Virus record (IMG/VR): IMGVR_UViG_3300021600_000003 | Span: 19,249-83,248 of that record | DNA from: a virus | Lineage: Duplodnaviria > Heunggongvirae > Uroviricota > Caudoviricetes | DNA length: 64,000 nt | Direction: 5' to 3' (one strand) | In this document: one piece after another, positions 39,083 through 58,630 of the stretch | How the letters are laid out: each line of letters starts with the position of its first letter | Numbering within the stretch: the first letter of the stretch is position 1 | Translations under genes and position numbers: made by a program | The notes under the pieces: model-generated | Database searches by the model: none | What the model saw: only the letters and a program-made list of their open reading frames with translations | What the model was told of the DNA's origin: nothing

Positions 39083-39114
39083 AATACAATATACGAAGAA
39101 TATTTGAGATTACC

Positions 39115-39144
39115 AAATAAAAAAGGTCCTCGAGAGCGAGGACC
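39115..39144 (-). terminator. intrinsic terminator after the fibre gene cluster
   Basis: Minus-strand RNA forms ggtcctcg-cucu-cgaggacc (8-bp perfect stem), followed by UUUUUUAUUU. Confidence 0.7.
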
Positions 39145-39153
39145 ATAAATAAC

Positions 39154-39167
39154 TCGGAGAACCAACA
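39154..39167. repeat. exact 14-mer, inverted copy d (CTCGGAGAACCAAC on the plus strand), intergenic next to terminator T1
   Basis: Reverse complement of the 14-mer. Followed by AACCGAG, which forms a local inverted repeat ctcgg...ccgag. Confidence 0.8.
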
Positions 39168-39176
39168 ACCGAGGTT

Positions 39177-40241
39177 TTAAATAGTTGGATAACTTACTGC
39201 ACCATCAAAATTAACTACAATAGTCTTTGATGTGGCTGTTGTGAAAGAAGATTGGAACTCTAATAAGATATTTTGAGTTGATTTCCTGATAATGTAGTTA
39301 TACATTTGACCTACACTTTCTATGTAAGTAATTGATTTTAAATCACTTGTACCTGCTTGTTCAGCTAAAGTCAAACAAGTTGTTGGGATATTTCCCATTG
39401 TAATAGTATATTTTCTATTTGCAGAAGTATTAGCTGCAAATGCTATAGTGTAAGATATAGAACCACGGAACTCTAGAGTACCATCAAAACGATAACGATA
39501 CTGAGGAGCACCTGATAAAAAGACAACATTAGCATTTCCTGTAGGAACTATAGTGATATCTCTCCATGTATTATCAAAACAAGCTCTTACTACCTGAATA
39601 GAAGGATTTGTTGATACAATATATGGATTAATTAATGTGCCTGTTCCTGTTACTGTAACTCCTGTACCAGCTATCACCTTGGTCTCTGAGCCATCTGGAG
39701 CAATACATGTAGACATTAATTTACCATCTGTTCCTATATATAAAGGATTACCTATATCTGTTGATAACAAAGTAACTGGAACTACATCAAATAGTATATC
39801 CTCATTTCCTGCTGGATTTTCTTTTGTTTTAGATAGGAAAATACCTGTCTTAAGCTTATCCCATAAGTATCCTGTTGTAGTATCTGCTGCAGATACCTTT
39901 GCATTTACATCTATAGGAACACCTCCTTGAACAGCATCAATTCTTATCTTCTCATCACAGCCAGTTCCTGTAACTGTAAGTGTAATATCTGTTCCTGCCT
40001 CTAACTTATCTATTAAGTATTTAGGGCATATATCACTACCATCAACAAGAACTTTACCTATTGAGCATATTTTATCATTAATCTTTGATAAAATAGTATC
40101 TCCGTCCTCAGCGTTAGAAACACCAAGACAAGATAAGTAAGTACCTGAGTACGTAGTACAACCAAAAGTATTTGGATTTATACATCCACAATCATCATGT
40201 TGACTACAAGGGTTGCATGGGTTATTATCTGTACAAGACAT
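39177..40241 (-). CDS. tail fibre/spike-like protein, 354 aa
   Basis: Gly/Thr-rich beta-type repeats (VTVTGTGT...). Adjacent to the paralogous fibre genes. Followed by a strong intrinsic terminator. Confidence 0.65.
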   Translation of the reverse strand: MSCTDNNPCNPCSQHDDCGCINPNTFGCTTYSGTYLSCLGVSNAEDGDTILSKINDKICSIGKVLVDGSDICPKYLIDKLEAGTDITLTVTGTGCDEKIRIDAVQGGVPIDVNAKVSAADTTTGYLWDKLKTGIFLSKTKENPAGNEDILFDVVPVTLLSTDIGNPLYIGTDGKLMSTCIAPDGSETKVIAGTGVTVTGTGTLINPYIVSTNPSIQVVRACFDNTWRDITIVPTGNANVVFLSGAPQYRYRFDGTLEFRGSISYTIAFAANTSANRKYTITMGNIPTTCLTLAEQAGTSDLKSITYIESVGQMYNYIIRKSTQNILLEFQSSFTTATSKTIVVNFDGAVSYPTI

Positions 40242-40258
40242 ATTATAATTTTTATTTA

Positions 40259-41629
40259 TTAAAGTATAGTTGTTGTTGTGGTTGTTGAGGTGGTAAACTC
40301 TACAAAGTCTTCAACACATGTAGATGATAAAAGAGTACTATCTGAAACTGTAGTAACTGATGCATAAGGAGGTAATACAAATACATCTCCTGTTGCCATA
40401 CTTACTGTTTTATCTACACAATTTGAATTAGTATTATCACATAATTTATAGTTAACTATCACATCTCCAGCAGCTGTTAATGTACAGAACTGACATGGAT
40501 CTCTATCTACTATTTTCTCTAGACACTTATTGCACTGAATTCCTTTAAGAGTATTACACATTTTACCTTCAATATTTACTACCAAATTACCAGTTGAAGA
40601 TAAACCATCTATTGCTACCTCTAAAGTAGAATTAGCTGAGATAACTATATCGAAGTACTGAATGTTTCCCAATGTGTCTGTAATGCTACCAGATGACCCA
40701 CAATCCTCGAAATTTGCTGGGATGGACGTTCCTGCTCCCTTTGTAAATTTTATCACTATACCACTCATATCAGTATTGAACAGGGCTGTAAATCCTAAGT
40801 ACACATCATCACATGTTACTTTACAACATCCATTCTCGATTGATAATATACGAGTACGTAAAGATTGTACCTCTAAAAGAGTATTTCCATAGTTATCTGC
40901 CCAATTTGAGGGAGAAGCATTCCATCCTGTTATACTACCAAATTCTGGATTTAAGTCAGTAGGAGTATTTGCTAAAGCATCTGTTATATCTGTTACTGTC
41001 CCAATAGATTGTTTATAGTCACAAACCTCTTTTGAGAGATTCTGTACTTGTACAGATAATGGTAAAGACTCTGATTTTACACAAGTAGATACTTGAACTT
41101 CTCTAATTACTCTTGATCTACTTGCTTCATTTATAGCTTCTTGTAATTTTAAGATGCTAGTATCAGCACTATCTAGTGTACCCTCATGTTTACATAAAAC
41201 ATTGATAATCAATTGGTCTAGCTCATCTCTTGTTATAGATAAGTTTAAGCCATTAAAAGAAGCATAACATTTCAAGTCAACTTTAATACTTGTATCTTGA
41301 AATAATATTGCTAATTGTTTTTCTAACTCATTTATATAACTTTTTAGACAAATATGATTATCTCTAAGAAGTGTTAAAATTGATATTATTGTAATTTCTT
41401 CTGGTGCAGTTTTTTGACATATTGTCAGAAGACCACTTATATCAAAACTTGATAAATTCTTAGGTACTAGATTTTGAATTTGAGATACTATTTCACTCAA
41501 GAGTGGATTAAGAGAATCTCCGTTACATATTCCCAAAGTAGGTATATCTATATCATCCCATATTTTACAAGAGGATGGTGTAGGAATACAGTCTTCATTT
41601 GTACATTTTTCTACTCTTTTCATTAGCAA
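40259..41629 (-). CDS. tail fibre/receptor-binding protein, 456 aa, paralogue of the upstream 567-aa protein
   Basis: The N-terminal ~300 aa are alignable with the 567-aa protein (CIPTPSSC, LGICNGDSLN, DLKCYA, LNPEFG, GWN, NWA.NYGN). Divergent C-terminus ending in a poly-Thr tract. Confidence 0.75.
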   Translation of the reverse strand: MLMKRVEKCTNEDCIPTPSSCKIWDDIDIPTLGICNGDSLNPLLSEIVSQIQNLVPKNLSSFDISGLLTICQKTAPEEITIISILTLLRDNHICLKSYINELEKQLAILFQDTSIKVDLKCYASFNGLNLSITRDELDQLIINVLCKHEGTLDSADTSILKLQEAINEASRSRVIREVQVSTCVKSESLPLSVQVQNLSKEVCDYKQSIGTVTDITDALANTPTDLNPEFGSITGWNASPSNWADNYGNTLLEVQSLRTRILSIENGCCKVTCDDVYLGFTALFNTDMSGIVIKFTKGAGTSIPANFEDCGSSGSITDTLGNIQYFDIVISANSTLEVAIDGLSSTGNLVVNIEGKMCNTLKGIQCNKCLEKIVDRDPCQFCTLTAAGDVIVNYKLCDNTNSNCVDKTVSMATGDVFVLPPYASVTTVSDSTLLSSTCVEDFVEFTTSTTTTTTIL

Positions 41630-43326
41630 GTACAGATATCTTCATAAGGAATAAGATAGTTCCACTCAAATGAAGGATTTGTCCATTTAACTAATGGCAT
41701 ACCTAAATAAGTTGGAATTTCTACTGCTACCATTTTAGGACTAACTGCAGCCCCTCCTGCATTACATAATATGTTACATAAACCTAAAGGAACAGATACA
41801 GGAATAGAATTCATTAAAAAGTCTCCATCAGTATCCCATACATTTCCACCAACATCTACCAAAGGATATTCTACAGTTCCTATCTTAATATGAGTCATAT
41901 AAGCATCATTCAAATCACCTAAGCTATTACCTTCCCATTTAAACTGCCAACATTTATATCCACTTGGTAAAGGAAGAATACCCGAACAAGTTGATGATAG
42001 TGTTATATTACCTGTAGGTATAACTGCATGAATAACAACATCTTTAGGGAATAATACGCACTGATTATTTATCATAGTAATAGTCTTCTCTGGAGTACCA
42101 TAAACAACTACTACATGAGCACCTACATCTCCATTTGCACAAACCTTGCAATCTCCACAACTACTAGAATTTACAATTTTTCCAATACAATCAGTACATG
42201 TTAAACTACCATTTGACATATTAGCTTCCACCTTTATAATCAAATCTTGAGTTATATTAAGAGAAGGAATTGGAACAGTTATAATAGCACTATTTGATAT
42301 AGGATAACTAACTGTTGAGTAAGTCTCAACATTATTATCAATATCTGTAATAGTGATTGTTGAACCAATATCTATAAAACCTACTGGGATATTTGTTCCA
42401 GCACTAGCTGTAAAGCTAATAATTATTGCAGTTTTAGCTGTATTAAATGCAGCTGTATAACCTATTTTTACCTTATCACAATTAGCACCACAACAATCTG
42501 TTTCAATTGTTATAACACGTTGACGCATATTCTCTAACTCTAATAATAGATTACCATAGTTATTAGCCCAGTTTTTAGGTACTAAATTCCAACCAGCAAT
42601 TAATCCAAATTCTGCATTTAGATCTCCGGGAGTATTACCTAATGCTGTTGATATATCTGATGGAAATCCAGCAGCATTCTCTAAATTGCATATCTCTGTA
42701 GATGTATTCTGTAATTGAACTGATGTTGGTAGGGTAGCTCCATTAATACAAGTTGGAATTTCTAACTCGTCTACATTACTAACTACATTCAAAGCATCAA
42801 TCTCAGCTTGTAATAAAATTAATTGACCTTCTATAGTTGTCAAACGACTCTCATGAGAACATAATGTATTAATACATAATTGGTTAAATTGCTCTCTAGT
42901 AAGTCCTAATGCATTACCTAAATTATCAAATTCAGCATAACACTTTAAATCTACATTTACAGATGTTGTTTTAAACAACTCATCCATACCAGCTTTAACC
43001 GTATTAATAAAATCTTTAAGACAAATCTGATTATTTTTAAGTAATGTAAGTATAGATACAATAGTAATTTCTACTGGCTCTTTTTGATTGCATATGTCTA
43101 ATAAGGCATCAATATCAAATGTAGATAAATCTTCACCAGTTAATGTCTTTAACTTTGTAATGATTTCAACAATAAGATTATTAAGAGAATCTCCGTTGCA
43201 TATTCCTAAATACGGAATTTCTCCACCATTCCAATCAATACATGATGAAACAGAGGGAATACAATTCTCAACTAAACATTTTTCCTTTGCCATATTTATT
43301 TTTTTCCAATTCGTATTTCCATCCAA
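41623..43326 (-). CDS. tail fibre/receptor-binding protein, 567 aa, paralogue of the 456-aa protein
   Basis: Shared Cys-rich N-terminal domain and a divergent C-terminal domain. Confidence 0.75.
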   Translation of the reverse strand: MDGNTNWKKINMAKEKCLVENCIPSVSSCIDWNGGEIPYLGICNGDSLNNLIVEIITKLKTLTGEDLSTFDIDALLDICNQKEPVEITIVSILTLLKNNQICLKDFINTVKAGMDELFKTTSVNVDLKCYAEFDNLGNALGLTREQFNQLCINTLCSHESRLTTIEGQLILLQAEIDALNVVSNVDELEIPTCINGATLPTSVQLQNTSTEICNLENAAGFPSDISTALGNTPGDLNAEFGLIAGWNLVPKNWANNYGNLLLELENMRQRVITIETDCCGANCDKVKIGYTAAFNTAKTAIIISFTASAGTNIPVGFIDIGSTITITDIDNNVETYSTVSYPISNSAIITVPIPSLNITQDLIIKVEANMSNGSLTCTDCIGKIVNSSSCGDCKVCANGDVGAHVVVVYGTPEKTITMINNQCVLFPKDVVIHAVIPTGNITLSSTCSGILPLPSGYKCWQFKWEGNSLGDLNDAYMTHIKIGTVEYPLVDVGGNVWDTDGDFLMNSIPVSVPLGLCNILCNAGGAAVSPKMVAVEIPTYLGMPLVKWTNPSFEWNYLIPYEDICTC

Positions 43327-43440
43327 AGATCTCTTAATTTATCTCTAGAACTATACGAATCATATTTCTTAGAAAAACAAGTTTCTATAAAATACTTATC
43401 ACTAAGTAGTTGCTCATATTTTAGAGATGCAAACTTACAT

Positions 43441-43989
43441 TTAACATTGACACTCATTGCTATATCTTTCTAGTAATTTAACAGCCCATTCATATAATTG
43501 TTTACCTTCTTTCTTCTCGTTACATTCTTCTACCTTATATTTGGCAGCCATAATATATTCATCTATCTCTCTTAACTTTTCTCTCTGATTATGATATTCT
43601 TCTCTAGTAATCTTACAAGCATCAGATTTTAGATTATCCCATTGATGTGATAATTTATGACGTAAATCAGTTACTCTTAAGTGCATATATTCTACTATTG
43701 TAGCAGAATTAGGTTTATATGATTGTTTTATTTCATATATACCATCAGGTAAATCACGAAGAGCTGTTAGATCTGCTACTTTACGATATCCTAAACTTGA
43801 TGAGTTTAAAGCTAAAGAAAAGTTCTTCTGAACATGAAAGGTTACCCATGTTTCCTTATTTACTGGTAGTACCTCTATTAAGTAATTTGTAATCTCATTA
43901 TCATTACAATAATGGGACGTATCATATATCCTAAGTACTTTAAGATTAGGATAGTCTGAAACCTCAAGGTATAATTCGTTGGTAGGCAC
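43441..43989 (-). CDS. hypothetical protein, 182 aa
   Basis: ORF track entry. Confidence 0.5.
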   Translation of the reverse strand: MPTNELYLEVSDYPNLKVLRIYDTSHYCNDNEITNYLIEVLPVNKETWVTFHVQKNFSLALNSSSLGYRKVADLTALRDLPDGIYEIKQSYKPNSATIVEYMHLRVTDLRHKLSHQWDNLKSDACKITREEYHNQREKLREIDEYIMAAKYKVEECNEKKEGKQLYEWAVKLLERYSNECQC

Positions 43990-44100
43990 AGTATAAGATA
44001 GTTAAAAAATGTGAGAAATTAAAATAATTCTTTATGTTAAAAAGAAAAAGCTTGGCAGACTTACTGCCTACCAAGCTTCAACTTTTAGAACTTAGATATA

Positions 44101-46362: not shown

Positions 46363-46391
46363 AAAACTGTGTTGTTAATTGTTATTAATTA

Positions 46392-47063
46392 TTAATTGTT
46401 AGATTCGACTCTACTCTCTGCCAGAGCCTTTGCATTTAATGATTCAATATCTGAGGCTATAATCTTACAAGCTTCATCTACAAGCATATCACATATATCA
46501 TCTTTGAATTCCACTACAGTATCTAACTTTTTAAAGTTATAAAATACTGGTTTTCTGTAATACGTTAATTCTACTTTGTCTATAGTAAAATCTTTATTGT
46601 GATATATATGAAGTTTATTTCCTATAAGAGTATGAAATGTTTCCTCAAATATAAAAGAAGGGAGCGTATTTAACAAATCATCTACATTAGCTTCCTCTCT
46701 GAGGTGAGATTTTATTGAAATATTTGTACAATTCCCCTTACTCACATAGGGTGTTAACCTCTTAAAATAAAGATAATCTGAAGGTAACTTATTAGTTTCT
46801 ACATACACTCCCTTATTTCTTATTGTTAATCCATCTCTCTTGAGAATAATCTGTAAATCATCTACTCTAGTCGTTGTCTCTTCATCTCCTTCATGAGTAG
46901 CATTATTACCTCTATACTGCCTTCTTACCCACTCATTAATTCCTTTATTAAAGGCTTCCTGTTTGATATATGGCCAAAGATTGTCATAATCAGAAGAGGC
47001 ACCTTTATTTAAACGTATATCAATTTTTGTGGATATTTGAGTCAGTGTCATTATTCTTTCCAT
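46392..47063 (-). CDS. hypothetical protein, 223 aa
   Basis: ORF track entry. Confidence 0.5.
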   Translation of the reverse strand: MERIMTLTQISTKIDIRLNKGASSDYDNLWPYIKQEAFNKGINEWVRRQYRGNNATHEGDEETTTRVDDLQIILKRDGLTIRNKGVYVETNKLPSDYLYFKRLTPYVSKGNCTNISIKSHLREEANVDDLLNTLPSFIFEETFHTLIGNKLHIYHNKDFTIDKVELTYYRKPVFYNFKKLDTVVEFKDDICDMLVDEACKIIASDIESLNAKALAESRVESNN

Positions 47064-48046
47064 TTAGTCTCTACAGCTGCTTTCAGATTGTCAAAGTCTA
47101 CTCTGAATTTAGGTTTTTGTAGATTATCTACAGCTTCCTTTATTGTATTTCCAAGTATTGTACCTTCTGAGGTAACAAACTTTTTCTCTCTTTGGGAAAT
47201 TAAGTTAAAATAATCTCCAGCTTTAACATATGCCTCAGTATAAAGTAACTGTCTAGTTTGAGGAGTTTTCCACTTATCTACATAATCAATAAACGTCTTA
47301 GGACAATTTTTCTTCTTCTTAAGTTGAAGCTTACCATCAATATATTTAATATGATAGTTAATTAAATCCTTTTCTGTAGTAGAGTAGTTATATGCTCCAA
47401 AAGCATTTGTGTCATATTGCATACACCAAGCAAGTATATATAAGGCATCTTTTCCGAATTCTTTTCTTAATAATGTTAATTCACCATGAGCATCTGAACG
47501 AGTGATATCTTCTTCTTCTCCAAAATCATTAGTCTCAACCTCTAGAGCTAAGTAATGAGGAATCTGATATTTTTCAGCCCAATCTCTTGTAGGAGCTACA
47601 ATATCTGAAAAAGCTCCACCTATAATTGATAAATACAACAAGGCATGCTCTGGACGGTCTGTATCATAAAACACATCAATTGTCTCATGAGTAACTTTAA
47701 GACGACTTATATCTCCTCTTTTTTTCCAAAATGAATAGTTATCAGAACTAATAACCTGAGAACCTCCATAATATCTCTCAATAAGAGGACGTAGTGTTTT
47801 AATTGTATCTGCTACAATAGGTTTTTCTTCATCTGAAAACCATTTATAAAACTCTACTTGTTCTTCATCTAATCCTGTAGCAAATTTCCATTTTATTGGA
47901 TTTCCTTGATGATCAGTTTCTATTGTTCGAGCTGTTCTTTCACAGTCTCTGTTAAAAGGTTCACCTGTTCCGGAGTATCTTACTACTAAATCTCCTTCTT
48001 TTACAGCCTTAGCTGCAGTGTTTCTAATTGCAAATTTTATTGACAT
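47051..48046 (-). CDS. hypothetical structural-module protein, 331 aa
   Basis: ORF track entry. Follows the putative capsid gene. Confidence 0.6.
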   Translation of the reverse strand: MSIKFAIRNTAAKAVKEGDLVVRYSGTGEPFNRDCERTARTIETDHQGNPIKWKFATGLDEEQVEFYKWFSDEEKPIVADTIKTLRPLIERYYGGSQVISSDNYSFWKKRGDISRLKVTHETIDVFYDTDRPEHALLYLSIIGGAFSDIVAPTRDWAEKYQIPHYLALEVETNDFGEEEDITRSDAHGELTLLRKEFGKDALYILAWCMQYDTNAFGAYNYSTTEKDLINYHIKYIDGKLQLKKKKNCPKTFIDYVDKWKTPQTRQLLYTEAYVKAGDYFNLISQREKKFVTSEGTILGNTIKEAVDNLQKPKFRVDFDNLKAAVETKWKE

Positions 48047-48116
48047 ATTGATGGTTTTTAATAAAGACTTAGTTGTTTATCCAGCACTGCCACGGGGAGG
48101 CGTCTTCTTAGTGCCA

Positions 48117-48141
48117 ACTTGGTGCCTTGAAAGCACCAAGT
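48117..48141. other. perfect 9-bp palindromic hairpin downstream of the putative capsid gene
   Basis: acttggtgc-cttgaaa-gcaccaagt. The T-run is only on the plus-strand side (attattttaggggtattactttttttt). Orientation and function are unclear. Confidence 0.4.
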
Positions 48142-48216
48142 ATTATTTTAGGGGTATTACTTTTTTTTACCACCACATTTTTTCTTTTCTGACATAATTG
48201 TATGTTTTAATTGTTA

Positions 48217-49926
48217 TTAAAGAGCTGCAATACCAGTACGTGGATTCTTTGGAACCATTTTCAGTAACTTAGTAGGATCTTTCACAATTGCTGTGTCAGC
48301 TTTACTAACAAACTTAACTTGATATCCACTTAATTCATCTGAAGCCTGAGATACTGTAATATTCTGACCATTGATGTTTGTTGAAGAACGTAACAGTGGG
48401 TGAGTATTATCACCAGCCTCAACAATCATTCTCATCTTAGTACCATTCTTACGAATAATAGCTATGTTGTCTTTTGATGTGTTGTAGTCTTCAATTAACA
48501 TTGTGTAAGAAGATAAACGGTAACCACCCGGTAAAATTGGGTTAACAAACTCGTCAGCTTTTACTGGATCAAATCCGGGTTCCCATTCAACTTGAAGGTA
48601 ACCAATGTTTGGAATTTGATACTTAGTGAAACGTGGAGCATTGTATGTAAGGTTAGCTGCGTTTTGACCAGTAATGAATCCGAATTCAGCATTTTGTAAC
48701 TGAGCTGGAATCATAAATCCTTTTTTCAAGAAGGCTTGGTAAATCAATTCTGAACCACCACGACCTGTCTTAACAATATAAACGTTATCAGAGATTGATT
48801 CACGTAAAGGAACTTTACCAAATTCAAAATCTTTAATAGCATCTGTAAGTGTATCCAATCCAAAAGTATCAATAGAGAAAGAATGTTTATAACCTGCCAT
48901 ATCTAATTGGAACCAAACACCGGGAACAAGTCTCTGTGTATCATAACCATCTCTAAGTAAATCAATTTGGTCAGACCAAATCATTAAATCATTATTTTGT
49001 TTCTGCATCAAGTTGATAGCAATACTATCTAACAAGTTAACCATAGCAGCTTCACCATTACCTTTACCTTTTTCTTCCTGTAATCTTTCGAAATACATTT
49101 TGTAAGATTCTGGATTTCTTAAGTCTACTACTTTATTATCAGCAATACCACGAACTTGATAGAATTGTAGAACTGTCTGCTCCATCATTGCTATTTGCTT
49201 AGCATCAATACGAGTGTTTGTATTAAGGTACTCACAAGCACCAGAAGTAACACGGTAAGATTGTTGCAACATCATGTTGGATAAATAGTTCTTGTATTTA
49301 GCAAGAGAAGGTACACCACTGATTGACCAAACGCTCTTATTGCTGGAGAAATCAAGACTTCTCATATCAGCCAATTTAACGATTTGACGTTGTGGTTGGA
49401 ATTCTGCTTTACTAACAAACTTCACATGAGCATTAGTATTAAGTACAGCCCAAACTTTAAAGTGCTCACCTAATTGCTCAATAGGACGATCAACTACTGT
49501 AAAAGATATACGTGAAGTCAAGTCAAATTTGAAGATAGAACCGGGACCTAAGTCTCTACGGGTAACTACAAATGGGAGTTCCTCACCATCCATACCTTGC
49601 TTATCTTTATCTAGACCACCAGCAACTAAACGAGTTGTAGAGTCAGCAGCAGAAGGTAATTCGAATGTGTAGTAATCTGCATCCGTATAGATAACTTGTG
49701 CATTATCTATAGCCAATGTTAACAATGGGGAGTCTGTACGTTGTCTTAAAGCCCACAAATCCAATACGCCAAAATCTAATGGCTGAGTTGGAGCAAGAGC
49801 TGTTACATAGGGGATATCAATATGATTTTTGATACCTAAAGAGCGTGCTTGCCCGATAAAAATACCGGGATGACCTAATGTTCCTAAGCCCGTTCTGTTG
49901 TCTGTTCCGGGAATAAATTCTGGCAT
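48217..49926 (-). CDS. putative major capsid protein, 569 aa
   Basis: Position immediately after the portal and scaffold-like genes. Biased high-expression codon usage. Followed by a 170-nt intergenic region with a strong palindromic hairpin. Confidence 0.6.
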   Translation of the reverse strand: MPEFIPGTDNRTGLGTLGHPGIFIGQARSLGIKNHIDIPYVTALAPTQPLDFGVLDLWALRQRTDSPLLTLAIDNAQVIYTDADYYTFELPSAADSTTRLVAGGLDKDKQGMDGEELPFVVTRRDLGPGSIFKFDLTSRISFTVVDRPIEQLGEHFKVWAVLNTNAHVKFVSKAEFQPQRQIVKLADMRSLDFSSNKSVWSISGVPSLAKYKNYLSNMMLQQSYRVTSGACEYLNTNTRIDAKQIAMMEQTVLQFYQVRGIADNKVVDLRNPESYKMYFERLQEEKGKGNGEAAMVNLLDSIAINLMQKQNNDLMIWSDQIDLLRDGYDTQRLVPGVWFQLDMAGYKHSFSIDTFGLDTLTDAIKDFEFGKVPLRESISDNVYIVKTGRGGSELIYQAFLKKGFMIPAQLQNAEFGFITGQNAANLTYNAPRFTKYQIPNIGYLQVEWEPGFDPVKADEFVNPILPGGYRLSSYTMLIEDYNTSKDNIAIIRKNGTKMRMIVEAGDNTHPLLRSSTNINGQNITVSQASDELSGYQVKFVSKADTAIVKDPTKLLKMVPKNPRTGIAAL

Positions 49927-49951
49927 ATATATTTGTTTTTATTTTGGTATC

Positions 49952-51160
49952 TTAACCTCTACCAAAAGAGGGCTTTTTATTAAACTGATTACGTTGAACA
50001 GATGGTCTCCTTTCTTCTTCATCAAAATCGTTACCAGAGGCTTTATGTGTATCCCCTGCTAATCTCAATTTCTTCTCAAGAGAGGCAGCTGTTTGGTTAG
50101 CTACTGAAGTACCTAAGTAATTATAGAAGGCATCCTTTTTAGCTAGTAACAGAGCAATTTCTTTTAGAGTCTCAAAGTCTTTTTTCTCAAATAGATTATC
50201 TATTGCTGTATAAACTCCGTACCCTTGTGTCTCTTCAGAGGGTTCTGCTATCAAATCATAGATTGCAGCCTTCTCGTCTTGTCTTAGTTTAGTCTTTCCA
50301 AAAATAGGTTTTTCAATTGCTTGTAAAGCATTTTCCCTAATGTCAGTAACTAACTGTATATATTGCTTCTGTTGTTCTTGTTCAGCTTGAATCATCTGTC
50401 CTAGATACTGTTGTTCTTGTTGGATGATCAGTGGCTTGTATTGTTTTGCTGTTGCAACTAATTTATCTGTAGTTTTTAGAGCATCTATCTGAGAAGTAAC
50501 TATTTCCTCTGGCTCTCCTTTCTGTTCCATCCTAGTACGTACTATTGCTTCTGCACCTTCTGGAGTATTCTCATCTAAATTAGCTACAGATTGTATTGTT
50601 TTTACACCTTGTAGGAATGGTATTACCTGTGATGGATCATCTACCATTTCTGCATATTGACTAACTGCCTTCCATGCTGGAGATTTGCTATTATACCATG
50701 CACTCTCCATTTGCTTTTTGGCTTCATCTAGACGATAATTGATTTGTAACTCAAGTACCTCATCATATTCTTCTGCCGTTTTTGGTATAAATGATACCTT
50801 ATTTCCGTCCTTATCTATTTCATCTACTGCAATAAACTTTCCGTTTTTGATTCTCTCTTGATAATAAGAGGATAAATCCGTAAGTGGCTGCTGTTGTAGT
50901 TTTTTAGATTCTCCTAGAATATCAGCATTTCCATCTGGAGCTAAGGTAGTTTCCTCTGTTGTAGAGGGAGCTAAAGTAGTCTCCTCTGTTGTAGATGGAG
51001 GTAATGTTGTTTCTTCTGTTGTACTTCTTTGTTTAGCAAACATATCAAGGTTGTGTTCTTGCATTCCAAAGTTAACTGGAGCAATTTGATTTGTTTGTCC
51101 TATTCCGGGAAATAAGTCAATCAGTGCATCCTGATTGATGTCTTTTACATTTGTTTCCAT
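49952..51160 (-). CDS. scaffold-like acidic helical protein with an N-terminal STTEETTLAP x3 tandem repeat, 402 aa
   Basis: Acidic, Gln/Glu-rich, predicted helical. Lies between the portal and the putative capsid gene. Confidence 0.6.
   Translation of the reverse strand: METNVKDINQDALIDLFPGIGQTNQIAPVNFGMQEHNLDMFAKQRSTTEETTLPPSTTEETTLAPSTTEETTLAPDGNADILGESKKLQQQPLTDLSSYYQERIKNGKFIAVDEIDKDGNKVSFIPKTAEEYDEVLELQINYRLDEAKKQMESAWYNSKSPAWKAVSQYAEMVDDPSQVIPFLQGVKTIQSVANLDENTPEGAEAIVRTRMEQKGEPEEIVTSQIDALKTTDKLVATAKQYKPLIIQQEQQYLGQMIQAEQEQQKQYIQLVTDIRENALQAIEKPIFGKTKLRQDEKAAIYDLIAEPSEETQGYGVYTAIDNLFEKKDFETLKEIALLLAKKDAFYNYLGTSVANQTAASLEKKLRLAGDTHKASGNDFDEEERRPSVQRNQFNKKPSFGRG
50936..51025 (-). repeat. 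in-frame tandem repeat encoding (STTEETTLAP)x3 in the scaffold-like gene
   Basis: Three consecutive ~30-nt units are visible in the nucleotide sequence (ggagctaaggtagtttcctctgttgtagag...). Confidence 0.7.
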
Positions 51161-51262
51161 CTTGTTGGTTTTAAGTGTTCTATAAATTGATAATAAACAT
51201 TTTAAGTTAATTTTCCAAATAAATGTGAATATAGCTAATTAGAAAACGATAATATATACTAA

Positions 51263-54052
51263 TTATTTTTTAGTCTTCTTTTTACTATCGTATTGATTCT
51301 TGTTTTTATCTGCTACATATTTAACAGCATCTGTCTGCATTTTGGCCTTCTGTAAATCAGTCATATTCTTCTCTCTTTCGACATTTAATTTTTCTCTATC
51401 TACCTGATCTTTTTGTTGTAAAGTATCCTGTACATTTTTCCTATCCATATTCATTTGCTGCATTTTCAGATAATGATCAACATTCTCCTGAGAGTCAGGT
51501 ACCTGATTTGTATTAATATCTGATGACATTCCACCCATTGCTCTGATAGAAGCAACATCAACTTGTGTTTGTCTGTTCTTATCATTTTGATCAGATGTGA
51601 ATTGATGTTGAGCATCTAGTGCTTGTTGAGCAGATTGTTGTTTTTGTTGCTCTAACTGCATCTCATGTTCTTGTTTAGATTGTTCTCTTTGTTGAGCTTC
51701 TATTTCACCTTCTTTAATTAATTCCATTAACTTTGGAACTGATTGTTCTACTAAAGCTTGTATTTGAGCAGAAGGTTTAATCTCTAAAGTATTATTACTC
51801 TTTAAGAATTCAGTTATTGTTTGTAGAGCTGCTCTTACATTTGCTCTACTTACTAAATTAATATTATAGTGCGGTAATAGATTATCCATACCTTCTATCT
51901 CTAACATTATAGTTTCATCCTTCTCATTCATATATGTTGCTCTAGAGGACTCTTGGAAAGTAGTATAGAATTGGGCAGCATCTAACATACGTTGTCTAAC
52001 TCTTTGCATTAAGTTAGAGTGTTGCTCAAAGTACTTCTCAGTCTGAGCTTCAGAGTAAGCAATACCCTGATTAATACCAGTAGCTGTCTCTGATGCTTTA
52101 TTCTGACCTAAGCGATTTCTAGTAATACCTATCAATTCACCTGCTTCCCATTTAATCTGTTGACCTAATTGAAAATACATTTGAGCTTCTTGTATTGTAG
52201 ATAACTGTAATACTGTTGGTAGTGCTGGTTGACCTGCACCTTCTAATGCATCACGAGATACACTATATGGAAGAATATCAGATTCTCTTAACATATCTTC
52301 ATAACCTTCTTGAGCATCTAAACCAGATACTGATGCAGATAGATTATTATTAGTCATAGTACGTCTGTCTATAGCTATCTTATTACCAAAATCTTTTAGG
52401 AACTTCTTAGGAACTCTATTCATACAGATATTATAGATAATCTGTAAAGGTTTTATACGATCAATAAATGAATGACTATCTGTATTTAGGTATGAATATT
52501 CACATCCTTCTATAGGAGGTAAACTATCAAATGGATTTGAACGTCCTTTAAATTGAAATTTAGTTGGACCACCATCGATATATATTGACTCCATAGTATT
52601 TGGAGTATTTAACCAAAACGTATGTTTCTGATTAGGAGATATCTTCATTAAATGTCTCCACTCTGGAACCCACGTCCAGTCTATATGTTCACCATATAGT
52701 AAGTTATCTTTACTTTCTTCTTTTACAACTGACTTATCATATACTGGTTCAACTGTAACTTTATAGTTCTCATCTACCCAATCTGGTTTTGGACGTGTAC
52801 CATCTCTATTTACTTTACTCAACCATCCAATCCTCTTGAGAGAACGCCAGTATAGACGTAATACACGGAACATTTGTGGATGACCAGTTACTCTTCTTCC
52901 CCAAATAGGATTTAAGATATCTACTTCTTGATTATGATCGAAGTTAGGATTTCTCATAAAGTTATATGCTAACTCTTTACCTAATAAAGCATCATTCATT
53001 TTTGGATCTAAACTAGTAGAATCAAGCCATGGTTTAGATAAGTCATAATATGAACCTTGATGTGCTTTAAGATAATCTGGAACCATGATATTAGAAGTCT
53101 TAACATAGATATCCTTTAACTTAAGAATATCTGCTTCCTTCATCTTTCTTCCAAACTTATTAACAATATCTCCAGATGACATAAAATCAAACCATAAAAA
53201 ATAATCTCCATCACTAACATACTTAATGTTTGGTCCTTTATGATAATCACACCATTTTGGATTGAGTAACTCTAAACGAAAATCATCATCAAGTAAATCC
53301 AAATGCCAAAACTCTCTATCACATATCAATCCACTCTCAAAACCATCTGGTTCTAATTCAGCTAAATCATATCTTTTCTCTTGTATTTGTAATACTTTTT
53401 CTGCCCACTTTACACCAGTACTACGGAAATTACGAGATGTATCCTCTATCTGTTTCAGATTCTGCATAAACTGCTGCATCTGTTGTTGATATTGTTGAGG
53501 GTCAGATTGTTCTGATAATCCCATTTCAGCAAGTTGTTGCTGTTTCTGCATTGCTGCATATTCAGTTACTACTTGTTCAAATTGTTGTTTTTTATTATTG
53601 AATGCTTCTGCAGTAGATGTAGGATCAATAGCTTCAACTCTCCATTGATTATCTCTCTTAATAAATTCACCTCTTAATACATCTATAAAGTTAGGTGCAA
53701 TAGGATAGAATTGTTCTAAAGGAGATTGTGATTCATGAGGTACTAACATTCCTACAGCTTGATAGTAATCATTCTGTGTAGGATTAATAATATAATCAGA
53801 AGGATTCAACTTACCATATCTCATCCAATAGTTTCTTTGGATTTTTCCAGCCTTTTTTTCTACATTATGCCAACCAGCTACTTCATAATAGTCTGCTACA
53901 GCTTGTATCCAGTCTGCTGTTTTCTCCTCTAGAGTAAGCATCTGGAATGGAAGAATATCATTGATGGCTCCACCTAATAGTTTATTTCTATCAAGTTTGA
54001 AACCTTTGTAGAGGTCTGAACCCCATATTACCGTTTTTTGTGAATTTGCCAT
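51263..54052 (-). CDS. putative portal protein, 929 aa
   Basis: Large ORF immediately downstream of, and 3 nt from, the large terminase gene. C-terminal Gln-rich, charged tail. Confidence 0.6.
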   Translation of the reverse strand: MANSQKTVIWGSDLYKGFKLDRNKLLGGAINDILPFQMLTLEEKTADWIQAVADYYEVAGWHNVEKKAGKIQRNYWMRYGKLNPSDYIINPTQNDYYQAVGMLVPHESQSPLEQFYPIAPNFIDVLRGEFIKRDNQWRVEAIDPTSTAEAFNNKKQQFEQVVTEYAAMQKQQQLAEMGLSEQSDPQQYQQQMQQFMQNLKQIEDTSRNFRSTGVKWAEKVLQIQEKRYDLAELEPDGFESGLICDREFWHLDLLDDDFRLELLNPKWCDYHKGPNIKYVSDGDYFLWFDFMSSGDIVNKFGRKMKEADILKLKDIYVKTSNIMVPDYLKAHQGSYYDLSKPWLDSTSLDPKMNDALLGKELAYNFMRNPNFDHNQEVDILNPIWGRRVTGHPQMFRVLRLYWRSLKRIGWLSKVNRDGTRPKPDWVDENYKVTVEPVYDKSVVKEESKDNLLYGEHIDWTWVPEWRHLMKISPNQKHTFWLNTPNTMESIYIDGGPTKFQFKGRSNPFDSLPPIEGCEYSYLNTDSHSFIDRIKPLQIIYNICMNRVPKKFLKDFGNKIAIDRRTMTNNNLSASVSGLDAQEGYEDMLRESDILPYSVSRDALEGAGQPALPTVLQLSTIQEAQMYFQLGQQIKWEAGELIGITRNRLGQNKASETATGINQGIAYSEAQTEKYFEQHSNLMQRVRQRMLDAAQFYTTFQESSRATYMNEKDETIMLEIEGMDNLLPHYNINLVSRANVRAALQTITEFLKSNNTLEIKPSAQIQALVEQSVPKLMELIKEGEIEAQQREQSKQEHEMQLEQQKQQSAQQALDAQHQFTSDQNDKNRQTQVDVASIRAMGGMSSDINTNQVPDSQENVDHYLKMQQMNMDRKNVQDTLQQKDQVDREKLNVEREKNMTDLQKAKMQTDAVKYVADKNKNQYDSKKKTKK

Positions 54053-54054
54053 AA

Positions 54055-56337
54055 TTAAAGCATTGAATAAGGTTTACCGGGCTTTCCGGGCTTAGATGAA
54101 TATGTTTTTTCCATACCTCCTAGCATGTTGGTTCTCCGAGGTTGCCTATACTCAGGCTTCTTCTCTTCTACTATTTCACTTTTTCTTTTAATAAAACGAT
54201 TCTGTTGATATATCTTACAAATAAATAAAGCTCCCATAAATGATACTAACCTATCATAGTTACCTCTTATTTTTCCTTTAACCTCTGAGTATCTAATAAA
54301 TTCCTCAAGTAACCAGTAATCATCTATTCTATCTATTCCAGTAAATAACTTTAGAGTTTCTTCTTGTCCATTCTTTGTAAATGTAGAACGGTTATATTCT
54401 GTATGAAAGTATTCTTTTGTATAAGCCTTAAAGTATTTCCATATCTCACTATTGTCTCCTTTATGAAATCCGAACTTGGAGTTATTTGCAGTATTACCAC
54501 TCTTGATATTCAAATCCTTAAATAATGGAACATCACTTTCTTTTGCTAGATACTTCTCTGCTTTTCCAATTTCTCTCATATAGTTAATAAAGTTGGGTTT
54601 ATTTCTTTCTGCATATGTAAATGCATTATATAACTTAATACCTAACCATATTTGTTCATTTGTTTTACGAGCTGTATCAAAACGTCCACGATATGTAGCC
54701 ACTAACTTATCACCTTCTATACGCTTTGATAGTTTACCATTAGCATCTCTATAGGTAACTTCTACAGCTGTCTTAAAGATATCTACAGAAGCTACTGATG
54801 AGGATGTGTCTGTTTGATCTACCTCAATAGCATCAACACAAGCAAAGTAAGTAAAGAATTCAGCAGTCTCATCAGGTAACTCATATAATGTCCATACTCC
54901 TCTCTTATCTTCCCACTCTGGATTAATTGGATAACGATGTTCTTCTGGTAATCTTAGATTAGACAATATTGTCTTACCATCTACATTTTCACTTAATAAT
55001 CCTTTCTGAGGTTTGAACTCCCAAACATTATTCTGTTCCTTTATTTTAATACGTTCTTGTTGTTTCTTTAATAACTCTATTGGAAACTCTGATATGTTTC
55101 TCTGAGCAAATGCTTGTTCAGGAGAAGTACACTTTTGAGATAATTGCAGTTGTTTTAGTTCTGCTCTTTTTGTTGAGTTCTTAATTTGTTCTTCCTTTCG
55201 AGCTATCCATTCCATAGCTAATGGTACATTTGAACGTCCATTTTTATCCATGAATGGTTGCTTAGTTACATCATCTTTACCAAGCATGTTATATGCTTCA
55301 CTAATGAATATACAACATTTATCCTTTTCTGGGTTTTTATCCCATATATTTTTAACACCTAAGAAATTATTATCTTCAGGATTATAAAATATTGATTTTA
55401 ATCCTTCAGCATCCTCCAACTCACCTACAGAACCACAAGCTATGATAGTACCTGTTGTTTCAGTACCTTTTTCTAGAGCTGGTCTTACGAACTCTAATGT
55501 TGATGATAATGTAGGAGATACACCGGGCTCCTCATAATTAAAGAATGTCTGACTACCACCTACATCATTTGAGGGAGATTGTTTAAAGGTAACACCTACT
55601 AACTTAGATTGTAACCCATAAGGATTATTATCTTGACCCATAGTAACCTCATTCCACTCTAGAGCTTTAGGTAATACGGGTCCTCTTTTCCAAGCTGTTG
55701 TAGTATTAATATGCTTTCTATATCCCTCAAGAAATCTCCAACTCTTCTTAACAAGCTTCTCATCAAAAGCACCAACAGTATTAATACTACCTTCAAACCA
55801 ACAATATGACCAATATAAAATAGCCATGTGTTTAAAAGAGTAACCTTTCTGTCTACCTTTTACGCCACCTATATGCTTTCCAGTTAACAAAGCAAGCATA
55901 CAGTAATGCATATACCAAATATCTCCGTCCCATACGTCAGGTAATCTTTTTCTTTTTAGTAAATCATCGTATATAGGACAAAAGTTAAGGTACCAATAGT
56001 AAAATGGTGGTAGATACATATCATCTACAATCAATCCATTTAGTACTTTATCTTTTTCATTACTCCAGTACTTCTTCCACTGATGAGTTCCTTTTATTGC
56101 TTTTATATATTTACCACCCTCAAAGTTAGGTTTCTTAGATTGCTTCTGAATAGCAGTATACTTTAAACCTTCTATTTGATAATCTTCTGCATTATCATAT
56201 ATATATTTATCTGGAGACTCTTTAAATTGGTCTTCCACATATGCAATAAACTCATCTTTATCTTCAAAGATTCTATGCCCCCATTGTTGGTTCTCCGAGG
56301 TATAAGTCTGTATTTTTAAAGAAAATTCCCAAAACAT
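54055..56337 (-). CDS. terL: terminase large subunit, 760 aa
   Basis: N-terminal ATPase P-loop-like GGVKGRQKGYS (RQxGK-type). C-terminal nuclease-like FACVDAIEVDQTD. Confidence 0.8.
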   Translation of the reverse strand: MFWEFSLKIQTYTSENQQWGHRIFEDKDEFIAYVEDQFKESPDKYIYDNAEDYQIEGLKYTAIQKQSKKPNFEGGKYIKAIKGTHQWKKYWSNEKDKVLNGLIVDDMYLPPFYYWYLNFCPIYDDLLKRKRLPDVWDGDIWYMHYCMLALLTGKHIGGVKGRQKGYSFKHMAILYWSYCWFEGSINTVGAFDEKLVKKSWRFLEGYRKHINTTTAWKRGPVLPKALEWNEVTMGQDNNPYGLQSKLVGVTFKQSPSNDVGGSQTFFNYEEPGVSPTLSSTLEFVRPALEKGTETTGTIIACGSVGELEDAEGLKSIFYNPEDNNFLGVKNIWDKNPEKDKCCIFISEAYNMLGKDDVTKQPFMDKNGRSNVPLAMEWIARKEEQIKNSTKRAELKQLQLSQKCTSPEQAFAQRNISEFPIELLKKQQERIKIKEQNNVWEFKPQKGLLSENVDGKTILSNLRLPEEHRYPINPEWEDKRGVWTLYELPDETAEFFTYFACVDAIEVDQTDTSSSVASVDIFKTAVEVTYRDANGKLSKRIEGDKLVATYRGRFDTARKTNEQIWLGIKLYNAFTYAERNKPNFINYMREIGKAEKYLAKESDVPLFKDLNIKSGNTANNSKFGFHKGDNSEIWKYFKAYTKEYFHTEYNRSTFTKNGQEETLKLFTGIDRIDDYWLLEEFIRYSEVKGKIRGNYDRLVSFMGALFICKIYQQNRFIKRKSEIVEEKKPEYRQPRRTNMLGGMEKTYSSKPGKPGKPYSML
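54127..54140. repeat. exact 14-mer GTTGGTTCTCCGAG, copy a (inside terL, C-terminal codons)
   Basis: Exact match. On the mRNA-sense strand it reads CTCGGAGAACCAAC and encodes RRTNM. Confidence 0.8.
56286..56299. repeat. exact 14-mer GTTGGTTCTCCGAG, copy b (inside terL, N-terminal codons)
   Basis: Exact match. Encodes SENQQ in a different frame from copy a. Confidence 0.8.
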
Positions 56338-56339
56338 AA

Positions 56340-56843
56340 TTAATATTCTCCCATTTCATTGCTACCTTTCATTTTAGTTCCTAATTCATCATCAGCTATC
56401 TTTCTTAGATTTGTGGCAGATGCTACTAACTTTTCGAACTTATCTACAATAGTAATACGATCTTTCATATCTCCTCCCATTGGAGTATCTCTCAAATATG
56501 TTCTCCATCTATGACTTTCAGCTTCCATTTCATCTGCTGCTTGTGAAGCTTCTGACTTAAACAATCCCTGTAATCTTTCAATTGCAGGGTCAATTAATTC
56601 ATCATCTTCATTAAAGTCTCCTAATGTTTCTTTAACATCATATAATGCTGCCTCAGAACGTTCTTCTTGTGGCAAATTTCTATATGGAGAATCTGGATAT
56701 GATAAGTGAGCAATATATGTTAGATATGGAATAGCATCACTATCTCCATACTTAGTAATAATCTTATTCAACTCAGGAATACTAAAACCCTCAGCAGTTA
56801 TCTCAATTGATCCATTAACATATTCTAATATTCTTGGTGTCAT
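56340..56843 (-). CDS. hypothetical protein, 167 aa; candidate terminase small subunit by position
   Basis: Immediately upstream of, and coupled to, terL. Confidence 0.45.
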   Translation of the reverse strand: MTPRILEYVNGSIEITAEGFSIPELNKIITKYGDSDAIPYLTYIAHLSYPDSPYRNLPQEERSEAALYDVKETLGDFNEDDELIDPAIERLQGLFKSEASQAADEMEAESHRWRTYLRDTPMGGDMKDRITIVDKFEKLVASATNLRKIADDELGTKMKGSNEMGEY

Positions 56844-57640
56844 TTACTATAAATTGTTTCTAGCATTTCTATTACCTCTTTCTTTCTATATGGTAATTTT
56901 ATCTTATCTATCTTTAATACGATAGGTAATCCTTTTTTATCTAATACTGGTAAATTATCATTATTAGGATCTCTTTCTAATTGAATATGTTCTAATATAA
57001 TATCTCCCGGCTTAAGTAATCCTCTATTGGACTTCCATAGAAGATACATATATAGAGACATCTTAATTGAATAAATATTAGCATTACATTCCTCTAGATG
57101 AGAAAGTGGTGGTAATAACCTTGCTGGGTCTGTCCATTTTGATGAGAATGCCTTATAATCAATCTTGGCATCAGTCTTATAATCCCAGATATTTATCTTC
57201 TTATTAACTACAATTACTTTATCAGCTTGTCCACATATCATGTGATCTATATCATATATCATTAACTCTCTATACTCTGTATTATCTTGTAACTGATTAA
57301 TAGGAATTGAATGTTTATAATTATCTATTATAGGACAGAACTCAATATTACATTTAACATTATAGAAGTTTGGAGTGTCATGAGAATCCATTTCTCTTAA
57401 ACTATGATATTTGGTTCCGATAGATGATGCTATATCTCTCTTTCTTTCCCATTTAGCTAATACCTCTTGAGTGGTTGTTGGTTCTCCGAGTCTTGTTTTC
57501 TTTTTTGCTACCTTGGCAGCAATCTCATTCCAGTTAACTTTATTCTTAAAGCGTTCTGTAAATGCTGATACAGAGATTAATTCTCTGTTATCATCTAAAA
57601 TATACTGATGGCTCTCCTCTATAAACTTTACTTTATGCAT
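56840..57640 (-). CDS. PD-(D/E)XK family nuclease (RecB/Cas4-like), 266 aa
   Basis: MIYDIDHMICGQADKVIVVNKKINIWDYKTDAK fits the D...D-x-K core. Confidence 0.65.
   Translation of the reverse strand: MHKVKFIEESHQYILDDNRELISVSAFTERFKNKVNWNEIAAKVAKKKTRLGEPTTTQEVLAKWERKRDIASSIGTKYHSLREMDSHDTPNFYNVKCNIEFCPIIDNYKHSIPINQLQDNTEYRELMIYDIDHMICGQADKVIVVNKKINIWDYKTDAKIDYKAFSSKWTDPARLLPPLSHLEECNANIYSIKMSLYMYLLWKSNRGLLKPGDIILEHIQLERDPNNDNLPVLDKKGLPIVLKIDKIKLPYRKKEVIEMLETIYSK
57477..57490. repeat. exact 14-mer GTTGGTTCTCCGAG, copy c (inside the PD-(D/E)XK nuclease gene)
   Basis: Exact match. Encodes GEPTT, a third frame. Shares the extended GGTTGTTGGTTCTCCGAGT context with copy d. Confidence 0.8.
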
Positions 57641-58269: not shown

Positions 58270-58630
58270 AACGTTTTTCTCTTACTTGTTTTTTAATATT
58301 CAAATACTTATCGTATTCTAATAATCTCTCTTGAAAGTTAAGATATTGCAGGTGCTTATCTAGATAGGCAGCATAAGCCATATTTGAGGGAAACTCATCT
58401 CTGTGTCTTATTAAAGCTCTATCTGTCCACTCATTTACCACAATCTCTAACCTCTTCTTTCTTAAATGCCAAGAACCTACTCCTTTGAGCTTTAAGATTA
58501 GGGAGGTAGGTTCTTTTAACATTCTTGCAGTTTCACGAAATATAAATGAGCCAATGTCTTTATATAACTGCTCACTTTGTTCGTTTTTTTCTGCTAATTC
58601 TTTGTATATATCTAGATGACTAGTTTGCAT
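58208..58630 (-). CDS. hypothetical protein, ~140 aa; start moved to the internal Met so it does not overlap the upstream gene
   Basis: ORF track entry 58208..58729. Met34 (ATG at 58630-58628) lies 5 nt after the upstream gene's TAG stop. Confidence 0.4.
   Translation of the reverse strand: MQTSHLDIYKELAEKNEQSEQLYKDIGSFIFRETARMLKEPTSLILKLKGVGSWHLRKKRLEIVVNEWTDRALIRHRDEFPSNMAYAAYLDKHLQYLNFQERLLEYDKYLNIKKQVREKRYETQVLLQPIDREDDRFKSS

Follow-up and report, generated by a model that had tools for sequence, protein, structure and literature searches.

The stretch of DNA analysed here, a 64-kb window (64,000 nucleotides, positions 19,249 to 83,248 of IMG/VR virus record IMGVR_UViG_3300021600_000003), covers a region that is, judged by its sequence, the morphogenesis module of a distant, uncultured crAss-like phage. 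All 36 of its 36 open reading frames (ORFs) of at least 120 aa lie on the minus strand. Our subject is a 14-nt sequence, GTTGGTTCTCCGAG, that occurs four times in the window, together with a predicted RNA hairpin, the d element, that contains one of the four copies. Copy c (57477–57490, plus strand) lies in an exonuclease-like gene (PHROG 298; 56840–57640, minus strand) that adjoins the terL side, with a 167-aa ORF, also on the minus strand, between this gene and terL, and copies b (56286–56299, plus) and a (54127–54140, plus) lie near the 5′ and 3′ ends of terL itself (54055–56337, minus). Copy d (39153–39166, minus) is found at the end of a set of tail-fibre-like genes on the minus strand, the last of which is ORF 39177–40241.

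The four exact copies were described in an earlier note made from the sequence alone. Zero copies of the 14-mer are expected by chance, and four were reached in none of 100 dinucleotide-preserving shuffles, which confirms that observation; allowing up to three mismatches added just one further match in the window, which is at the level of chance. The placement of copy d on the minus strand stands, although its start had been given as 39154, one nucleotide off the true span of 39153–39166. The ORF coordinates agree with the positions assigned to copies a and b at the two ends of terL and to copy c in the adjacent nuclease gene, and translation shows that the three coding copies are indeed read in three different frames, giving the peptides RRTNM, SENQQ and GEPTT; the proposal that conservation acts on the nucleic acid is borne out by the comparisons below. 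The motif is also not a generic repeat. Exact matches to it in IMG/VR, of which there are more than 118, are single chance copies except in the relatives of this phage, and a 19-mer version has two chance matches among 185,579 bacterial genomes, giving no clue to the host. Nor is positional conservation lacking, as related phages keep the positions.

What had been overlooked is that d is the master copy, that copies b, c and d are kept in relatives, and that the loop of d matches a shared translation leader. Since all of the genes lie on the minus strand, copy d, which is 15–18 kb downstream of the others, is complementary to them on the same transcribed strand: in the mRNA sense copies a, b and c read CUCGGAGAACCAAC, whereas the transcript of copy d reads GUUGGUUCUCCGAG and is antisense to them. 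All four copies share one part of this complementarity, the exact 14-mer.

On the transcribed strand, the order of features at d is stop codon, hairpin and then the mRNA's own intrinsic terminator, which is the arrangement of an RNA from a 3′ untranslated region (3′ UTR). A 26-nt box, AAAACCUCGGUUGUUGGUUCUCCGAG (39153–39178, minus), starts right after the stop codon (39177–39179) of ORF 39177–40241 and comprises, all on the minus strand, a 5′ flank (39174–39178), a 5′ arm CUCGG (39169–39173), an 11-nt loop UUGUUGGUUCU (39158–39168) and a 3′ arm CCGAG (39153–39157). A linker, UUAUUUAU (39145–39152, minus), leads from it to an intrinsic terminator on the same strand, identified by a terminator scan and by folding, with an 8-bp G+C-rich stem closed by a CUCU tetraloop (39125–39144) and a U-tract (39119–39124); the tail-fibre transcription unit ends at this terminator (39119–39144). 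The small inverted repeat that had been seen at copy d, right beside a terminator, is this CUCGG–11 nt–CCGAG hairpin, the terminator stem being that at 39144–39125. The 81-nt d region folds as two hairpins, d and the terminator, with a minimum free energy (MFE) of −22.9 kcal/mol and z = −4.0. A second d-type element was sought elsewhere in the window and none was found. At the Rfam gathering threshold 12 tRNAs and nothing else passed across the whole window, and a permissive search of 39000–39300 gave a best E value no better than 0.9, with no match near the gathering score. As a possible independent promoter for d within the upstream gene we considered the string TAATTTTG, which exists in the window; it is unconserved in relatives and was rejected, and upstream of d we found no internal promoter that is conserved.

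Relatives of the phage were gathered through terL, the protein encoded upstream of d, the 331-aa protein, the major capsid protein (MCP) and protein-cluster look-ups. A d-type element is present at the same spot in approximately 30 related uncultured crAss-like contigs (designated by L numbers), where its flanks are divergent. The shared layout consists of an AAAAC-type flank, a stem of 4–7 bp, a loop of 10–14 nt with UUGGUU, an A/U linker with GUUU(A)U and a G+C-rich terminator. The terminator sequence differs in every lineage, its loop being mostly of the YUCU type and the linker keeping GUUU(A)U. In about ten genomes the 26-nt box is identical despite differing upstream coding sequence and a differing downstream terminator, and in L162, where two extra genes intervene, the d element still stands directly before the terminator.

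The loop is conserved while the stem varies, and 17 distinct stems were collected (5′ arm/3′ arm: CUCGG/CCGAG; CUCGG/CCGAA, in which the outermost pair is unpaired; CUUGG/CCGAG; CUUGG/CCAAG; CUCGG/CCGGG; CCCGG/CCGGG; GUGG/CCAC; UGCAG/CUGUA; UGUAG/CUGCA; UGUAG/CUACA; GUAGC/GCUGC; AGUAG/CUACU; UCCCU/GGGGA; CAUGG/CCGUG; UAUGG/CCGUA; CUCUU/GAGAG; and UUGG/CCAA), extending an earlier covariation set of 13. Variants with the 3′ arm CCAAG occur in L204, L205 and L207. Because a MAFFT alignment of the full d elements put the stems out of register, the arms were aligned on their own, in a register chosen by us. Standard pairs fill 96.5% of the cells of this alignment, compared with 61.5% in shuffles, both sides change at all five of the five pairs (shuffle mean 3.5), and the covariation score is 1.04 as against 0.28, a value as high being reached in 0 of 500 shuffles. 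When the 3′ partner was slid by 1–3 columns, the paired cells dropped to 38–60%. The 17 stems therefore show the compensatory changes expected of a conserved secondary structure, in the arm register that we chose. It can also be seen that G.U intermediates bridge the compensated stems, as in the series CUCGG/CCGAG, CUUGG/CCGAG, CUUGG/CCAAG and in the pair CUCGG/CCGGG, CCCGG/CCGGG. The nine G.U cells in the set are valid on the sense strand only; since they would be A.C mismatches on the opposite strand, it is the sense-strand RNA that has this structure.

The complement of the loop, AAACCAACAA, recurs in every genome examined as the leader that immediately precedes the start codon of several module genes. 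Between two and four genes in each genome bear such a leader, namely the scaffold-like, 331-aa and 122-aa genes and sometimes others, and its common form is AAAACCAACAA-AUG. In the window, AAAACCAACAAG (51161–51172, minus) directly precedes the AUG of the scaffold-like 402-aa gene (49952–51160, minus), with nine nucleotides (51162–51170) complementing the d loop, and AAAACCAACU (58989–58998, minus) directly precedes the AUG of the 122-aa gene (58620–58988, minus), which is the first gene of the unit that holds sites c, b and a. The third leader, AAAAACCAUCAAU (48047–48059, minus), lies before the AUG of the 331-aa gene (47051–48046, minus) and has one mismatch to the loop complement in this phage, where relatives carry AAAACCAACAA. 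Promoter-like TTGGAA-17-TATTAT motifs are present upstream of the leader of the scaffold-like gene (51218–51190, minus) and 7 nt before that of the 122-aa gene (59034–59006, minus), so that at these two genes the 5′ UTR is short and consists mostly of the leader. On its sense strand the window has six occurrences of the heptamer AACCAAC: in a, b and c, in two leaders before start codons, and once elsewhere.

All relatives keep the leader before the scaffold-like gene, where it covaries with the loop. In most genomes the loop reads UUGUUGGUUU and the leader AAACCAACAA; in L123/L180 the loop reads UUUUCUUGGUUU and the leaders AAAACCAAGAAAG and AAAAACCAAGAAAAA; and in the L143 lineage the loop UUUUUUUGGUUUUU is accompanied by the leaders AAAACCAAUAUU and AAAACCAAAUAU in L209 and by AAAAAACCAAGAAU and AAAAACCAAAUAU in L210. 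One key position is thus found in three states, with a loop G facing a leader C, a loop C facing a leader G, and a loop U facing A in two leaders, a wobble G in one and a mismatched U in one. In L126/L182 an additional U in the loop is matched by an additional A in the leader of the scaffold-like gene, which brings the match to 12 nt. A conserved loop, conserved complementary sites and covariation between them are the features expected of a seed and its targets. Separately, a leader-like string, AAAACAAACCAUC (35836–35848, minus), was noted directly before an AUG that lies 3′ of the tRNA block; although mismatched to the d loop, it may, from its sequence, be a further member of the leader family.

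At the sites inside terL and the nuclease gene, complementarity to d extends over 15–19 nt. Site c, ACUCGGAGAACCAACAACC (57473–57491, minus), occupies codons R-L-G-E-P-T-T of the exonuclease-like gene and matches d over 19 contiguous nucleotides (predicted duplex −37.1 to −43.8 kcal/mol). Site b, CUCGGAGAACCAACAAUGG (56281–56299, minus), spans terL codons 13–19 (S-E-N-Q-Q-W) and matches over 16 contiguous nucleotides (−38.7 to −39.6 kcal/mol), with an extra GGGG:CCUC segment that can pair with d, and site a, CUCGGAGAACCAACA (54126–54140, minus), in codons P-R-R-T-N-M near the 3′ end of terL, matches over 15 nt (−34.2 to −36.3 kcal/mol). By comparison, the next-best sense-strand duplex in the 64 kb has a predicted energy of −24.0 kcal/mol, and the background is −8.2 kcal/mol (sd 3.1). 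Within 3–8 nt after each of the three sites comes a GAGGU or GGGG able to pair with d once its 5′ arm or flank is free: the GAGGU of site c, which lies 6 nt 3′ of it, matches the d 5′ flank, and a GGAGGU lies 7 nt 3′ of site a. Sites a and b were also considered as internal translation starts, as GGAG-N7/8-AUG follows them, and this was rejected: the out-of-frame ORF after b is unconserved, and the AUG after a encodes a conserved methionine of the TerL tail.

Site b is exact in L119, L120, L121, L127, L151 and L152; it is exact in every relative with at least 75% TerL identity. Across six genomes the 19-nt run CTCGGAGAACCAACAATGG at site b is the longest invariant run in terL, the next being 11 nt, and the same codon is kept in only 12.3% of the invariant degenerate codons of the gene (12–16% across terL and the nuclease gene). 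The longest invariant nucleotide run of the nuclease gene, GGAGAACCAAC (11 nt), lies at site c, and the homologous GEPTT site in relatives retains 11–15 nt of site c. As b and c are the longest invariant runs of their genes, their synonymous sites are constrained. Site a is found in this phage only. Its relatives encode QPRRTNM with other codons, indicating that the match arose by four synonymous differences.

The in-gene matches also extend into the stem arms in a clade-specific manner. The 13-nt nuclease site of L185, CCAACAACUACAG, pairs with that genome's own 5′ arm CUGUAG, whereas the site c match in the window extends the other way, into the 3′ arm; and in L126/L182 a 14-nt sequence, AGUAGCAAACCAAC, in codons 2–6 of a DUF1573 gene, pairs with their own 3′ arm GCUACU. 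On this comparison, site c covaries with the stem arms between clades. Counted over 13 genomes, matches of at least 11 nt to a genome's own hairpin number 20 on the sense strand versus 0 on the antisense strand.

These observations point to the four 14-mers being one master hairpin and three complementary mRNA sites, and hence to an antisense regulator, not a packaging signal. We estimate a probability of roughly two in three that d is a conserved 3′-UTR antisense RNA hairpin which pairs with the leaders and with the in-gene sites. An RNA-level element had been the last of the options listed for the repeat in the earlier note, and it is the one that the evidence supports. The comparisons above show the structure of d and its conservation, the complementarity, the covariation and the constraint on synonymous sites; we infer that the RNAs meet in vivo and that the effect is negative, with d acting either while still in the tail-fibre mRNA or, after processing of that mRNA, as a 3′ fragment. 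The exposed U/G-rich loop would nucleate pairing with its A/C-rich single-stranded targets, strand invasion would then open the hairpin, and pairing would spread into the stem arms. At the leaders, a duplex over approximately −12 to −2 of unstructured start regions that have no Shine-Dalgarno sequence would hinder initiation and so repress translation. At the 15–19 bp in-gene duplexes, which belong to the subclade of this phage, the packaging-gene mRNA could be marked for a double-strand-specific RNase. Late transcription of the tail-fibre genes would in this way be coupled to lower expression of nuclease, terminase and scaffold. A very strong intrinsic terminator with a 14-bp stem lies 3′ of a 753-aa gene (44047–44079, minus) and cuts the morphogenesis module into at least two units; because this terminator (44079–44047) separates the units, d would act on terL mostly in trans.

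Several points weigh against this reading. Covariation between loop and leader is seen in three lineages only, and includes one U.U mismatch. One of the three leaders in the window is mismatched, and the leader duplexes are weak (−9 to −15 kcal/mol). In the stem analysis the arms were picked around the conserved loop and the loops trimmed, which favours pairing, and 4 of 20 independent MFE folds differ around the loop (L136, L139, L144 and L162), while all 20 gave the terminator hairpin. Base composition by itself leads one to expect A/C-rich leaders and coding strands, and this inflates the strand asymmetry for short matches. A cross-genome matrix of own versus foreign hairpins is not cleanly diagonal because the loop is shared among genomes, and we relied on comparisons of homologous sites instead. 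L176, with 70% TerL identity, keeps an identical d, yet its site b has decayed; site b is absent in relatives more distant than this, whereas d persists in all of them, and wherever b exists d is invariant. Finally, the ribosome-binding window takes in neither site b (codons 13–19) nor site a (near the 3′ end of terL), so that direct translational repression cannot explain these two sites.

The same pairing could have a positive effect, exerted partly in cis, if the 3′-UTR hairpin and a 5′ leader closed the mRNA into a loop, protecting its ends and stabilising late messages, with the in-gene sites serving long-range folding or processing of a polycistronic RNA. The two ends of the module show joint conservation and covariation, d sits at the extreme 3′ end before the terminator, and the leaders lie at or within approximately 10–25 nt of the predicted transcript 5′ ends that follow TTGGAA-17-TATTAT, all of which would suit such a loop. 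However, the strong terminator at 44079–44047 stands between the leader units and d, so that most leader mRNAs would not carry d in cis, and pairing at −12 to −2 of a start without a Shine-Dalgarno sequence is expected to hinder initiation. We regard a positive role as unlikely, though it is the main rival reading.

We think it more doubtful still that d is a structural or protein-binding 3′-end element, such as a stabiliser or a site for a phage or host RNA-binding protein, and that the targets have no pairing function. Conservation of the loop reaches much further than that of any single long target, L176 has d without site b, and the linker and terminator loop have conserved features of their own, which is what such an element might be expected to show. 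It would nevertheless leave unexplained the nucleotide constraint on b and c, the synonymous gain of site a, the three-state covariation of loop and leader, and the clade-specific matches to the arms.

Sites in duplex DNA for a protein, whether a pac or terminase recognition series, a regulator-binding site or a nuclease or HNH target, were among the roles put forward in the earlier note, and we consider them improbable. Speaking for such sites are the four exact copies, the place of site b 38 nt into terL and close behind the 167-aa ORF (about 50 nt past this small ORF, a frequent location for pac), and, in this phage, an HNH gene of the free-standing homing-endonuclease type (NUMOD4 + HNH_3; 38642–39082, minus) that follows d, between the d terminator and the tRNA array. 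On the other hand, the d stem covaries with G.U pairs that are valid only in the sense strand, which duplex DNA does not need, and the relation of the copies on the one transcribed strand is complementarity and not identity. The targets share differing, overlapping registers of d instead of a fixed core with flanks; relatives have exact copies only of b and d, or only of d, and distant relatives keep the loop and alter the rest of the motif. A pac series is therefore unsupported, given a strand-specific covarying hairpin, variable registers, and a d that is kept where b, retained at 75% or more TerL identity, has decayed (L176). A homing-endonuclease or nuclease target fares no better, since d is unchanged where the downstream genes or the HNH gene differ: the identical box is found with the NUMOD4/HNH_3 gene in the window, L137 and L208 and without it in L133–L136, L201 and L203, where d is followed instead by other genes or by a tiny Gly-Cys ORF. 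The suggestion of a promoter for a phage RNA polymerase sits badly with three copies inside ORFs and a fourth 3′ of the last gene of its unit, before the terminator, and the promoter-like TTGGnA-17-TATWWT motifs lie away from the 14-mer copies. That the repeat is a functionless product of chance or hitch-hiking, left by recombination or a mobile-element insertion, can practically be set aside: short A/C-rich strings do recur on A-rich coding strands, but zero copies are expected, the positions are conserved in relatives, the synonymous sites are constrained, and the proteins align through the sites without an insertion.

An antisense RNA hairpin in the 3′ UTR has parallels among known systems. 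In the icaR mRNA of Staphylococcus aureus, a 3′-UTR motif pairs with the 5′ UTR, blocks ribosome binding and makes a substrate for RNase III (PMC3868564). The d element resembles it in being a 3′-UTR motif before the terminator that is complementary to a translation-initiation region. The two differ in that icaR pairs within the mRNA of one gene, by means of an anti-Shine-Dalgarno UCCCC, whereas in the phage the 3′ UTR of one operon matches the A/C-rich, Shine-Dalgarno-less leader of several other genes as well as coding sites of 15–19 nt, and is known from sequence alone. CpxQ, DapZ and SroC are examples of bacterial small RNAs (sRNAs) derived from 3′ UTRs. Such trans-acting sRNAs have been reviewed (PMC7821165). 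Like them, d has an exposed seed, an A/U linker and the intrinsic terminator of the parental mRNA, and both show multiple targets with conservation of seed and target sites; unlike them, its target complementarity runs to 15–19 nt where seeds are typically 7–12 nt. To our knowledge, the presumed Bacteroidota-type hosts lack Hfq.

Loop-initiated antisense control is also known from plasmids and phages, in CopA/CopT, RNAI/RNAII, P22 sar and lambda OOP. In these systems, as proposed for d, a hairpin loop nucleates pairing that spreads into the stem, and the duplexes are long enough for double-strand-specific RNases. Those RNAs come from the strand opposite their target, however, so that complementarity is automatic. 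The phage regulator and its targets are 9–20 kb apart on the same strand, and their complementarity must therefore be held by selection, as the covariation shows. Short sequences repeated in or near phage terminase genes have a precedent in the pac site in T4 gene 16 and its gene 19 homologue, which are thought to be duplex DNA bound by the small terminase subunit during terminase synapsis. The present repeats differ from these in being complementary on the RNA strand and in having as their master copy a covarying hairpin beside a terminator.

What is known of regulation in crAss-like phages concerns mainly transcription, by a virion RNA polymerase early and from host polymerase promoters in the middle and late phases (bioRxiv 10.1101/2020.03.07.982082), and we found no literature report of antisense or UTR-based control in crAss-like phages or Crassvirales. 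In sequence terms, what is new relative to the known systems is a single phage 3′ UTR that matches both a shared leader and long coding sites on the same strand, kilobases away. The hosts appear to do without Shine-Dalgarno pairing and to rely on unstructured A-rich leaders, and for such hosts, masking a shared leader with an RNA would offer control that is both simple and general. More tentatively, and at somewhat less than even odds, this environmental crAss-like family may possess an operon-terminal anti-leader RNA serving as one trans-acting switch that times or balances the translation and decay of morphogenesis messages. If this is correct, Crassvirales-like phages of Bacteroidota-type hosts would have in the anti-leader RNA their first described circuit of post-transcriptional regulation. 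Stem covariation, loop–leader covariation and synonymous-site constraint together make this an unusually clean comparative case, and the d element is a ready-made marker for the phage lineage.

The remaining features of the window fit around these elements. Between terL and the scaffold-like gene lies the portal gene (51263–54052, minus), and the MCP gene (48217–49926, minus) lies between the scaffold-like and 331-aa genes. Directly 3′ of the capsid module are 12 tRNA genes (36002–38365, minus; Ser ×2, Leu ×2, Arg, His, Gln, Trp, Phe, Cys, Thr and Pro). TerL has approximately 26% identity to gut crAss phages in its best matches, a protein search of cultured phages with the MCP and a DNA search of cultured phages each gave zero matches, and neighbouring genes in relatives match Pfam CrAss_Ring families. 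Two giant ORFs of approximately 3157 aa (2719–12189, minus) and 1690 aa (12189–17258, minus) were noted; these, with the layout of genes on one strand, look typical of the virion RNA polymerase/ejection-protein block of crAss-like phages. The promoter-like motif TTGG(A/T)A-17 nt-TAT(A/T)(A/T)T recurs before transcription units on the minus strand (39116–39088, 51218–51190 and 59034–59006), and relatives keep it as TTTGG...CGTATATT. By its sequence it resembles the sigma-70-like middle and late promoters of phage phi14:2, a crAss-like phage whose middle and late genes are transcribed by the host polymerase from such promoters (bioRxiv 10.1101/2020.03.07.982082).

The genes downstream of d vary. 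In other relatives its position is followed by different HNH genes, an Rce1-like gene or small ORFs, and the slot is therefore an insertion hot spot. Tiny Gly/Cys/Lys-rich ORFs follow the d terminator in L133 (3660–3710), with equivalents in L134, L135, L136, L139, L140 and L146; their peptides include MKKLYGGGCGCGGKK and MTILKGGGCGCGGKK, and a promoter-like TTTGG..CGTATATT lies ahead of them. The counterpart in the window is a tiny ORF, MSEKKKCGGKKK (48157–48195, minus), between the MCP and 331-aa genes, and an additional palindrome (48117–48141) lies 3′ of the MCP gene and this ORF. A few kb 3′ of d, matches to the Pfam families Acb2_Tad1_hairpin and Lockin, which are of anti-defence type, were found in L209 (15907–16227) and L210 (17441–17734).

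The genes that hold the in-gene sites appear to carry insertions in some relatives. The exonuclease-like homologue at L119:7492–9267 (also in L172 and L150) has 591 aa where the window gene has 266 aa, an intein-like or homing-endonuclease-like insert of approximately 320 aa splitting the conserved sequence, and a terL homologue of 1117 aa with Pfam PF05204/PF14528 (P0169) suggests that inteins occur in the terL of other relatives too.

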